A DNA stretch of 64,000 nucleotides from a virus, in the IMG/VR virus record IMGVR_UViG_3300005613_000025, positions 27,723 to 91,722 of that record, one strand, 5' to 3'. The notes below the pieces were generated by a model, which was given only the letters and a program-made list of their open reading frames with translations, did no database searches and was not told the origin of the DNA. Numbering within the stretch: position 1 is the stretch's first letter; each line of letters starts with the position of its first letter. The translations under genes were made by a program, and so were the position numbers. Shown here piece after piece: positions 285-61,076 of the stretch.

Positions 285-530
285 ATGCAATTCATTAAGA
301 AATTCACCAAATTCAAAGAGTCTGTTATGACTGAAGAGCCAGTTGTAAAACCAGACAGAACAAAAACAAAACCAAGTACAAGACCTCAAAGACCGACACC
401 CTTTCCGACCAAGAGGCCATCTGAACATGACCTACCAAGTCCAAAGGCAACTCAGGATGATGTTATCGATCGGTTCATACAACTTGCGATTGAGAACGAA
501 ATAGATATGAAAAAATATATTAAACAATAA
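285..530 (+). CDS. Small Pro-rich probable virion/internal protein
   Basis: Likely start is MQFIKKFTKFKES inside ORF 219..530, downstream of TAATATATA at 254-262. Confidence 0.65.
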   Translation: MQFIKKFTKFKESVMTEEPVVKPDRTKTKPSTRPQRPTPFPTKRPSEHDLPSPKATQDDVIDRFIQLAIENEIDMKKYIKQ

Positions 531-5712: not shown

Positions 5713-6126
5713 ATGAAATCGAACAAGCTTAATAGACACGAATCTCTAAAATTCATTTTCGGTGGTAATTCAACATTTACTTTTAAGAACAACATCACTG
5801 AGAACCGATTCACATATCGAGTGAGAAAACACAAGACAAACGACATTTACTTCGTAAGTGTTTTGACTCAGCCAGATACATACACATTCATCGGATCAAT
5901 TTTCAAAGAAGGAAATTACAGACATTCTGTGAAAAGTAAAATATCATCAAATGCGCAATCTGTGAAAGTTTTTGATTATGTTCTTAGAAAATTGCATACA
6001 GATTCACTGAGTGAGTCCATTGAAGTATGGCACGAGGGTAGATGTGGTCGATGTAACAGAAAATTGACCGTTCCTGAAAGTATCGAGTCAGGATTCGGAC
6101 CGGAATGTATAAGAAGGCAAAAATGA
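5713..6126 (+). CDS. DUF6011-like zinc-binding protein
   Basis: CGRCNRKLTVPESIESGFGPEC. Confidence 0.75.
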   Translation: MKSNKLNRHESLKFIFGGNSTFTFKNNITENRFTYRVRKHKTNDIYFVSVLTQPDTYTFIGSIFKEGNYRHSVKSKISSNAQSVKVFDYVLRKLHTDSLSESIEVWHEGRCGRCNRKLTVPESIESGFGPECIRRQK

Positions 6127-6692
6127 TATCATTACTTTTAATCACACTATTATCATATCATTTCATATTTCAATATCGATACCTTCGAGTATTGTCTGAA
6201 TTGAGGTCAATGTCGAGGTGTCATCATTGTTATGTTAAAAAAGATTCATATGATATAAGTTTCAATCAAAAAACTGGTGAGATCCATGCAAAACTCAATG
6301 GTAAATATTGCACATCTTGCCATGAAAAAATAACGAGAAAGAAAAAATTGAACTCACTTCTTTCTAAAAAATTCACATATTACAAAGAAAAGTTCGACCA
6401 ATCCCAATTTGAAAAAAAATTCGATAATATACTACTGTTGTATCTTATTTCAATTTTTATTTTGAGTTTGTTCACTCTAATTTTCATAAGTGATGAGTCA
6501 GGAATCATTTTAAATGTTTACAATTTCGGGAATTGTATATATTGGATCTTTTTAGTGAGAAGGAATTATTTCATAAAGAAAAAGGTCCAAGAACATGACC
6601 GTTCTCAGACCTTAGGGCCAACACTTTTTGCTGACATCCACCACTTTATTTTTAAAAGAATAAAGAAACTTAAAGATTATATTAAGAATTGA
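6105..6692 (+). CDS. Membrane protein with CxxC motifs
   Basis: Hydrophobic segments; CHHC and CTSC. Confidence 0.55.
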   Translation: MYKKAKMISLLLITLLSYHFIFQYRYLRVLSELRSMSRCHHCYVKKDSYDISFNQKTGEIHAKLNGKYCTSCHEKITRKKKLNSLLSKKFTYYKEKFDQSQFEKKFDNILLLYLISIFILSLFTLIFISDESGIILNVYNFGNCIYWIFLVRRNYFIKKKVQEHDRSQTLGPTLFADIHHFIFKRIKKLKDYIKN

Positions 6693-58812: not shown

Positions 58813-58941
58813 CTTATTGAATTTTTCCTTGTGATTACTTCTTTTGCGTTGTTTTCTTGATCCAACACGCTTTTTTGTTTGTTCTATTCTTTTTAGCTTA
58901 TCGCCCCCAAGTCTTCCATGATTTCTTTGATTTTACTTTTG

Positions 58942-59017
58942 TGGAGGTTATGGAATTCGAATCCATCTGATTTCCGCTTTGCAAAAGCGGTGACCACTCC
59001 AAGCAGTCCCAACCCCC
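58942..59017 (-). tRNA. tRNA-Ala(UGC)
   Basis: Acceptor GGGGGTT/AACCTCC with G3:U70; anticodon arm CCGCT-TTTGCAA-AGCGG; TTCGAAT T-loop. Confidence 0.92.
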
Positions 59018-59022
59018 TTATT

Positions 59023-59097
59023 TGGAGCAAAATGTGGGATTCGAACCCCGTCCCCGCATTGGAAGTGCGGTGCTTTGCCAGTTAAGCTACATCTTGC
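59023..59097 (-). tRNA. tRNA-Gly(UCC), encoded CCA
   Basis: CCGCA-CTTCCAA-TGCGG; U73 discriminator; 8-9 bp acceptor with a short T-stem. Confidence 0.9.
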
Positions 59098-59107
59098 TTA
59101 TTATCAG

Positions 59108-59188
59108 TAGGCGAGGTGGGATTTGAACCCACGTTTCCAACGTACCACTACGAATATCCAAGGTATAAGCTTGGCTCGGTACTCGCCC
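59108..59188 (-). tRNA. Non-canonical D-armless tRNA-Ile(UAU)-like RNA
   Basis: GGGCGAG/CTCGCCT acceptor, CCAAG-CTTATAC-CTTGG arm, GTGGG-TTCAAAT-CCCAC T-arm; only 7 nt where the D-arm should be. Confidence 0.7.
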
Positions 59189-59190
59189 AT

Positions 59191-59224
59191 AAAAAAACCC
59201 AGTCAAACTAAGTCTGACTGGGTT
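59191..59224 (-). terminator. Intrinsic terminator/attenuator immediately upstream of the Ile-Gly-Ala tRNAs
   Basis: AACCCAGTCAGAC-TTA-GTTTGACTGGGTT plus T-run on the minus strand. Confidence 0.85.
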
Positions 59225-59251
59225 ACATTAATTCTTTAACTTTGAATTACT

Positions 59252-59323
59252 TTACATAACACAGCCATTGACTGACGCTCCCGCGCCGCCTCCGATTATC
59301 GCTATGTTAGTTATTGTTTTCAT
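59252..59323 (-). CDS. Leader peptide MKTITNIAIIGGGAGASVNGCVM (Ile/Gly/Ala-sensing)
   Basis: Read manually; 3 ATA, 2 GGA and 3 GCG codons; lies between promoter motifs and the terminator. Confidence 0.8.
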   Translation of the reverse strand: MKTITNIAIIGGGAGASVNGCVM

Positions 59324-59398
59324 TGTTAATTATATTATCTATATATTAAAAAGTTTTTCTCTCTTTTTTCTTTCTTTTACAAAAGTAAGGATTATTTT

Positions 59399-59653
59399 TT
59401 AAACTGCCAATTTTAGTTTTGTGATCAATTCATTTTTCATTTTTTCAATATCACTTTCATTCTCAATTTCTACATATGAACATCGTCTTGATACTTTAAA
59501 GGCTGATACTTTTACTTTATCGTCTTCCAAAGAAACATAAACTGAGTTTCCTTTTTTATTTTGAAATCCAATGTAAACTGGATTTAAACCAGGTGTGTTT
59601 TGAAATCCAAGATTAATAACTTCGAGTACTGTAAGTGCAAATAGATTTTTCAT
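59399..59653 (-). CDS. Hypothetical protein
   Basis: ORF behind TATATTTG at 59670-59677. Confidence 0.6.
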   Translation of the reverse strand: MKNLFALTVLEVINLGFQNTPGLNPVYIGFQNKKGNSVYVSLEDDKVKVSAFKVSRRCSYVEIENESDIEKMKNELITKLKLAV

Positions 59654-60338: not shown

Positions 60339-61076
60339 TTAACATTGATAACTTTTTCTTAATTCATTTGAAACAATCTCAAAATATCTTGATCTCAATA
60401 ATTTCAAATAAGTTTCATTATCCATTCCATAGTTTCCAATAGCCCACATGTCATTATATTCAATAACAACATTTTCACCACTTTCTAAAATACCTACATC
60501 AATTGTATATGCTGTTGGAAACTTATCTTCATTCTTATAAACAACCTCTAAAAGTTCGATTTCGTCCGGAAAAGTAAAAATATTACCGGAATAGTTTCGT
60601 ATGTCAATTACTTTATCTCGATAAATATAACACCTCCATTCAGATTCAATAGGTGAATAAAATGGTTTATATGCCATAACCTTTGTATCATCAGGTATAT
60701 TGGAAATCGAAGTATAAATAGATTCATCAATCACAAACCCTGTGAATAATTTGATATCAAATGGTTTGATAAATAGTTTTTCACCTGATTTGGATCTATC
60801 TTTGGCTTGTTTTAGAGTTATGGTTTCAAATTTTCTGTTTGAATTTTCCGGCAACCGAACATCACTCAATCCAATTCTTGAAAAGACCATGTTCATGAAC
60901 TCAACCGAACCAACAAATAGATTATTTCTTATTAGATTGTCAAATCTACCACTTTCAACTTCTTCAAATGTTACGAATTTATAACTTTGAGCAGTATCTA
61001 TTGCTCCATACATTGCACAAGCAACATCAAAATGATGTGGTAGTTTCTTATCTGAATCTGATTGTAAGTATATCAT
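60339..61076 (-). CDS. ATP-grasp domain protein (R2K/DUF4343-like)
   Basis: FIKP..KLFTG, EWRCYI, YTIDVG..VIEYND..GNYG. Confidence 0.85.
   Translation of the reverse strand: MIYLQSDSDKKLPHHFDVACAMYGAIDTAQSYKFVTFEEVESGRFDNLIRNNLFVGSVEFMNMVFSRIGLSDVRLPENSNRKFETITLKQAKDRSKSGEKLFIKPFDIKLFTGFVIDESIYTSISNIPDDTKVMAYKPFYSPIESEWRCYIYRDKVIDIRNYSGNIFTFPDEIELLEVVYKNEDKFPTAYTIDVGILESGENVVIEYNDMWAIGNYGMDNETYLKLLRSRYFEIVSNELRKSYQC

Follow-up and report, generated by a model that had tools for sequence, protein, structure and literature searches.

The locus raises the question of how a block of phage tRNA genes is controlled when an intrinsic terminator stands immediately ahead of it and a very short open reading frame (ORF), rich in the codons of those same tRNAs, stands ahead of the terminator. 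We favor, with a probability of roughly 70%, a ribosome-mediated (leader-peptide) transcription attenuator that would gate the tRNA operon, such that the Ile, Gly and Ala tRNAs are probably made only when ribosomes decode those codons slowly. The window, by which we mean the whole 64,000-nt stretch analyzed, is the terminal part of a 91.7-kb viral record (CheckV completeness 16%) and has a GC content of about 32%. Among phage records, the nearest to it are uncultured genomes of 635–642 kb; because Al-Shayeb et al. 2020 predicted Bacteroidetes hosts for their genomes above 634 kb (PMC7162821), we infer a Bacteroidetes-type host for this phage.

Every feature of the Ile/Gly/Ala unit lies on the minus strand, in the order of two promoter-like motifs, a 23-codon ORF, a 13-bp terminator, a tRNA-like RNA with a UAU anticodon (UAU RNA), tRNA-Gly and tRNA-Ala, and the parts described in the first-pass annotation were all recovered. 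The upstream motif, TTACTTTTG (59388–59380, with TACTTTTG at 59387–59380), sits directly past the stop of an 84-aa ORF (stop at 59399, minus strand) and would function as a promoter of the TAnnTTTG type, which we take to be that of the Bacteroidetes −7 box. The 17-nt extended form of this motif has 11 matches in the window at three or fewer mismatches, versus 1.8 expected, and several of these sit immediately upstream of ORFs. The second motif is an 18-nt sequence confined to the tRNA region (59356–59339, containing TAATATATA at 59348–59340) that ends 15 nt before the leader ATG and is possibly the operon promoter. Exactly two identical copies of it occur in the window, the other (63097–63080) lying directly ahead of a tRNA-Met(CAU) that has neither leader nor terminator (motif and tRNA-Met within 63097–62987, minus strand), a context that points to a promoter role of the 18-nt motif at tRNA units and to a tRNA-Met that is ungated. 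Past the tRNA-Met come a small hairpin and then the next promoter motif, an arrangement shared by a 635-kb relative (L001). Motifs nearly identical to the 18-nt sequence precede both a matching leader and the tRNA-Met in L001, and a matching leader in L076.

The leader ORF (59323–59252) has an ATG start and 23 codons followed by TAA. Within it, ORF nucleotides 13–23 (59311–59301; region 1 by fold prediction) overlap the conserved N-terminal motif as well as the first codons of the regulatory run, and the last codons up to the stop (59273–59254; region 2) can pair either with region 1 or with the 5′ arm of the terminator. A 27-nt spacer separates the ORF from the hairpin. Regions 3 and 4 (59229–59196) comprise the intrinsic terminator, with its 5′ arm at 59224–59212, a loop and its 3′ arm at 59208–59196, together with 5 upstream nucleotides that would extend the antiterminator; the T-run reaches 59191 and the first tRNA-like RNA begins at 59188. 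A separate promoter past the terminator, which the first-pass annotation had named as the arrangement that would speak against attenuation, has no room in this 2-nt gap, and the gap is at most 17 nt in about half of the relatives.

Three RNA genes follow the terminator. The tRNA-Gly(UCC) (59097–59023) was predicted by ARAGORN and scored 50.5 bits with Rfam, and the tRNA-Ala(UGC) (59017–58941) was predicted by ARAGORN only, with no Rfam match over it. The UAU RNA (59188–59108), whose anticodon reads ATA, is atypical: ARAGORN made no call on it, and it scored 38.8 bits with the Rfam tRNA model (RF00005; cut-off 29). Its acceptor, anticodon and T arms are good, 4 nt replace the D arm, and its variable region is long. 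Conserved copies occur in four relatives (L013, ~362–450, minus strand; L015, ~5806–5890; L072, ~6558–6650; L056, ~90–170); the acceptor stem and the anticodon stem both show compensatory changes, and a D-loop-like segment is retained within the long variable region. Because of these compensatory changes and the kept segment, it looks like a putative functional RNA rather than a decayed gene. At the same position, L076 and L001 carry an ordinary tRNA-Ile(UAU).

The regulatory run of the leader, codons 7–16 (59305–59276; ATA GCG ATA ATC GGA GGC GGC GCG GGA GCG), holds Ile, Gly and Ala codons only. These three amino acids account for 12 of the 22 leader residues, versus 16.4% in the long ORFs of the window (binomial tail 4.9e-5), and the chance of a 10-residue run of them is about 2e-7, so that a chance origin of the composition is unlikely. 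Homologous ATG ORFs occupy the same position in 10 relatives of the Ile/Gly/Ala type. Among these leaders the GC-rich Gly/Ala run (59276–59293, minus strand; alignment A1, columns 37–55) is nearly invariant in nucleotides, and it folds as a small hairpin within the minimum-energy structure; because of this conservation and this hairpin, a constraint at the RNA level overlaps the codon signal. The run may also have a second role as a polymerase pause signal.

A terminator-type scan of viral contigs yielded 97 loci, from which scripted ARAGORN predictions led to 35 non-redundant leaders, all from huge-phage contigs. In every one of the 35, the ORF opens with ATG, contains the matching codons as an in-frame run and stops at or shortly past region 2, and the head motif M-x-T/N-I/L-T/N-N-I-A/S is common to all. 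The fraction of leader residues with an amino-acid-matching tRNA gene within 1 kb downstream was 0.316, versus 0.171±0.016 when the tRNA sets were permuted (0 of 20,000 permutations reached the observed value), and seven cluster representatives still gave p=2e-4, although these statistics overstate independence since the family members share descent. Clustering by peptide identity lumped most leaders into one group on account of the shared head motif, and for this reason we describe the leader classes by their tRNA sets.

Across at least 11 such classes, leader composition tracks the identity of the downstream tRNAs. A run of five Gln codons precedes three tRNA-Gln; a Pro/Gln/Lys/Tyr/Thr/Gly leader precedes tRNAs of the same set; a Lys/Tyr leader precedes tRNAs Lys, Lys, Tyr and Lys; and a Phe/His/Lys/Trp leader stands ahead of exactly the Phe, His, Lys and Trp tRNAs. 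Further types carry Asn/Asp/Tyr/Glu/Cys, Leu/Asn/Thr/Cys/Arg/Val or Tyr/Glu codons, and in one fused case (L067) the Tyr, Glu, Ile, Gly and Ala tRNAs form a single cluster behind a leader that mixes all five. As a held-out test, all tRNA clusters of two relatives (476 and 436 kb, 95–97% complete) were located with Rfam and the sequence upstream of each was inspected. A matching leader was found ahead of most major tRNA blocks, including a Ser/Arg leader ahead of Arg(ACG) and three tRNA-Ser and a Gln/Asp/Pro leader ahead of exactly those three tRNAs, and the nine leaders scored 0.378 versus 0.185±0.038 (p=5e-5). For some tRNA genes of the relative G001 (L102 1459–2103, L103 1337–1508, L104 1172–1244) no leader was detected upstream, namely a Leu(UAA)-Arg(UCU) pair, a Cys and a Met gene that each stand alone, and a block in which 4 or 5 tRNA-Asp are joined by Pro; these sets either have leaders of another form or are ungated genes.

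The window itself holds a second unit of this kind, for Tyr and Glu (62968–62743 and 62510–62160, minus strand), with a TAnnTTTG motif, a 32-codon leader bearing a Tyr/Glu run, a terminator (62780–62747, minus strand) and then a 66-aa ORF that had no Pfam match. These are followed by another unusual tRNA-like RNA, whose anticodon is GUA (62510–62418, minus strand; weak Rfam tRNA-Sec match of 25.6 bits), and by tRNA-Glu, Tyr and Glu. The layout recurs in L001, where one leader stands before a Glu/Tyr cluster and the other before Ile(UAU)-Gly(UCC)-Met-Gly, and the first eight codons of the L001 Glu/Tyr leader equal those of the Ile/Gly/Ala leader in the window at 22 of 24 bases. Given this match and the shared N-terminal motif and terminator type, the two window leaders are paralogues, contrary to the first-pass annotation, which had called them unrelated and argued from their independence that chance was unlikely. 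That argument falls with the paralogy and is replaced by the family-wide test. The accompanying suggestion of a general design is supported by the tracking of tRNAs over the leader classes and by an antiterminator that changes along with the terminator arm (below). As judged from their sequences, the cassettes are modular: the head is conserved, the codon run can be exchanged, and the tail fits the terminator.

These comparisons also bear on a reading without any regulation, in which the ORF would be a chance micro-ORF or the remnant of a dinucleotide-binding (GxGxxG-like) gene and the hairpin a processing signal or simply the upstream gene's terminator, with leaky read-through supplying the tRNAs. 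The Ile/Gly/Ala run may resemble the N-terminus of a Rossmann fold, and terminators of this sequence type are also found in unrelated phage contexts. Of 134 matches to the terminator pattern, 32 were followed within 1.5 kb by tRNAs on the same strand, and almost every one of the 32 had a short ORF, whereas among the 102 without tRNAs any short ORF at that distance was present in 13 and a leader-like one in none. A short ORF thus accompanies this terminator type almost exclusively where tRNAs come next, which, together with a chance of about 5e-5 for the composition, makes the absence of regulation highly improbable. We rejected the gene-remnant version because in the paralogues both ends of the ORF are retained while the run between them is exchanged to match the amino acids of their own tRNAs.

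The folds available to the leader are consistent with an attenuator. The terminator stem has 13 pairs, 6 of them G-C, followed by the T-run, and this terminator is the consensus structure across 10 relatives. The minimum-energy fold of the whole leader in the window copy (−44.5 kcal/mol, z −5.1) pairs region 1 with nt 59–70 of the ORF, in region 2, and then forms the terminator. When region 1 and the 3′ arm of the terminator are omitted, region 2 pairs instead with the 5′ arm and the 5 bases before it (−18.3 kcal/mol, z −3.1), so that the alternative pairings of the leader's 3′ part with the terminator arms, noted earlier, are indeed present. In the window copy alone, the 2:3 duplex was no better than mononucleotide shuffles of the GC-rich segment (z −0.7, not significant), and the antiterminator claim rests on the family-level test. 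There, the 3′ part of the ORF paired with its own terminator 5′ arm at −10.3 kcal/mol versus −7.3 kcal/mol for foreign arms (Wilcoxon 5e-5), and among nine loci with divergent arms the own arm ranked first against 32–34 foreign arms in five; where the terminator arm has diverged, the ORF segment is altered along with it. In an alignment of 10 Ile/Gly/Ala leaders, 91% of the 2:3 helix is paired, versus 22–47% in slid controls, with one compensatory pair.

For the 1:2 helix, RNAalifold on the ORF part alone found no column-consistent consensus helix, and per-sequence folds were used because the register of this pairing varies among relatives. In these minimum-energy folds, region 2 is paired with ORF nt 2–59, mostly nt 15–45, in 27 of 35 leaders. 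The early codons of the ORF, its 3′ part and the two terminator arms are accordingly modeled as the classical 1:2, 2:3 and 3:4 layout. The unit as a whole combines an upstream ATG ORF on the same strand, a cluster of matching codons (with partial support at the level of the codon), a terminator with no later promoter, and both 2:3 and 1:2 pairing.

So strongly structured a leader, at z −5.1, could also belong to a translation-independent RNA element that binds tRNAs or a protein, in the manner of a T-box or of protein-mediated antitermination, with the ORF being incidental. The nucleotide conservation of the GC-rich run fits such an element, as does that of region 2, whose RNA sequence is conserved across relatives despite an indel that places it in two different reading frames. 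We consider this improbable, since all 35 leaders keep the ATG, the in-frame matching run and the stop at or just past region 2, and since the match to the tRNAs is one of in-frame amino-acid identity over many codons per leader rather than one specifier codon. In addition, neither the T-box covariance model nor any other riboswitch model in Rfam matched the unit at E up to 10.

Returning to a translated leader, the fit of its codons to the downstream anticodons can be followed in part to the level of the codon. As the first-pass annotation stated, ATA, GGA and GCG are readable by the UAU, UCC and UGC anticodons; three of the ten run codons, GGC (twice) and ATC, have no match to UCC or UAU under strict wobble, and relatives carry a tRNA-Gly(GCC) in the same block. 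Over the family, the downstream anticodons can read 83 of the 117 informative leader codons under strict wobble, versus 59.8 expected (z 4.5, with members that are not independent). Ala, Thr, Ile and Arg show a clear codon-level match, and no family-wide excess under strict wobble was found for Gly, Leu or Pro. Leaders prefer codons that are rare in the phage, such as GCG and GGC: in these leaders GCG makes up 22 of 30 Ala codons versus 7% in the background, and GGC 38% of Gly codons versus 5%. ATA makes up 67% of Ile codons versus 46%. The TCA/TCG and CGC/CGA codons of the Ser/Arg leader L099 match Ser(UGA) and Arg(ACG).

The sequence and its comparison with relatives establish which parts are present and in what order, that they can pair in alternative ways, and that leaders match tRNAs throughout the family; from this we infer translation of the ORF, stalling on scarce cognate charged tRNAs, the resulting read-through and the purpose of the circuit. 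In the proposed mechanism, transcription would begin upstream of the 23-codon ORF. If the ORF is untranslated, or read fast to its stop, region 2 would be sequestered by region 1 or lie under the ribosome; with region 2 unavailable, the 3:4 terminator would form and the transcript would stop 2 nt short of the first tRNA. A ribosome lingering on run codons 7–16 (held on codons 7–13) would instead mask region 1 and leave region 2 free to pair with the 5′ arm of the terminator, and polymerase would continue into the UAU RNA, tRNA-Gly(UCC) and tRNA-Ala(UGC). Because those tRNAs decode most of the run codons, the circuit would be a negative feedback that supplies tRNAs on demand. Its physiological trigger could be a mismatch in codon usage, the loss or cleavage of host tRNAs, or timing.

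The same attenuator hardware might serve another signal, such as general translation stress or amino-acid starvation, making the operon a stress or timing module with no feedback on itself. Stalling at a codon depends on charged tRNA, and a shortage of amino acids would open this switch too, as is established for the trp and his attenuators; the GGC and ATC codons of the run are read by tRNAs outside the operon, and a tRNA-repair gene encoding a Thg1-like protein lies downstream on the same strand. A stress sensor would not need to mirror its own tRNA block, which the leaders do class by class and partly down to codon choice, and extra tRNA would not relieve amino-acid starvation. We regard this reading as rather unlikely, though the most plausible of the three alternatives, and continue to prefer on-demand attenuation by the cognate tRNAs.

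The neighborhood of the unit offers several further observations. The Thg1-like gene (tRNA-His guanylyltransferase family, Pfam E 7e-28; 58298–57417, minus strand) lies ~640 nt downstream of tRNA-Ala, with a 121-aa ORF of no assigned family in between, and may be co-transcribed with the gated tRNAs. An R2K-clade ATP-grasp protein is encoded at 61076–60339 (minus strand), and a gene for the ribonucleotide reductase small chain (63972–63316, minus strand) runs to the end of the window.

A wider form of the proposal, to which we would give even odds, is that this clade of huge phages practices "tRNA on demand" across the genome: most major tRNA blocks would lie behind a leader written in their own codons and be transcribed only when ribosomes slow at those codons, for example when host tRNAs are depleted or cleaved, with the products then shutting the block off. 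Huge phages carry up to 67 tRNA genes (PMC7162821). If the attenuation reading is true, it would give a simple and testable answer to why phages carry tRNA genes and how these are timed and dosed, with the phage topping up only those tRNAs that run short, be it from host shut-off, from defences that cleave tRNAs or from a mismatch in codon usage. The circuit would also be the first in which leader-peptide attenuation acts on tRNA genes, and it would directly sense how well the infected cell can decode, extending classical attenuation from amino-acid supply to tRNA supply. The modular cassettes amount to natural swap experiments and are possible parts for synthetic sensors of tRNA pools.

Among known systems, the trn operon of Anabaena sp. 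PCC 7120 is an accessory tRNA array whose default state is silent and which is turned on when translation is impaired (PMC8421152). Unlike the phage leader, it is regulated at its promoter, where the repressor TrcR binds direct repeats (PMC8421152, PMC10272220), and the words leader, attenuation and terminator are absent from the text of PMC8421152. Our literature search found no published leader-peptide control of tRNA genes. T-box elements resemble the phage unit in sensing the state of a specific tRNA through a terminator/antiterminator switch; they bind uncharged tRNA directly at one specifier codon and without translation, whereas the phage unit has an in-frame ORF of many codons.

Nearer in mechanism is the attenuation of E. 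coli pheST, in which phenylalanyl-tRNA synthetase is under the control of the pheM leader peptide, rich in matching codons. Both systems would place a component of the translation apparatus under such a leader, in the one case a cellular synthetase serving a single amino acid, in the other the tRNA genes of a phage for several amino acids. With Rfam at E up to 10, the region 58900–59400 matched no leader family (His_leader, Trp_leader, Leu_leader, Thr_leader) and gave only tRNA and chance-level matches; the Tyr/Glu paralogue (62893–62743) had a sub-threshold His_leader match (25.3 bits, E 0.6, cut-off 49). Enterobacterial attenuators consist of a short translated ORF with regulatory codons, mutually exclusive pairings and an intrinsic terminator. 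The phage unit shares with thrL (Thr/Ile), the ilvGMEDA leader (Ile/Leu/Val), trpL, hisL, leuL and pheL a short ORF, a regulatory codon run, exclusive 1:2, 2:3 and 3:4 pairings and an intrinsic terminator, and, like the multivalent thrL and ilvGMEDA leaders, it addresses several amino acids at once. It differs in being phage-borne, in its repetition as paralogous cassettes, one per tRNA block, and in its target, which is tRNAs where the enterobacterial attenuators regulate biosynthetic enzymes. We think it likely that leader-peptide attenuation, a known mechanism, has tRNA genes as its target here, and since the tRNA products would act directly on the sensor codons, the feedback loop would be shorter than that of the enterobacterial attenuators.
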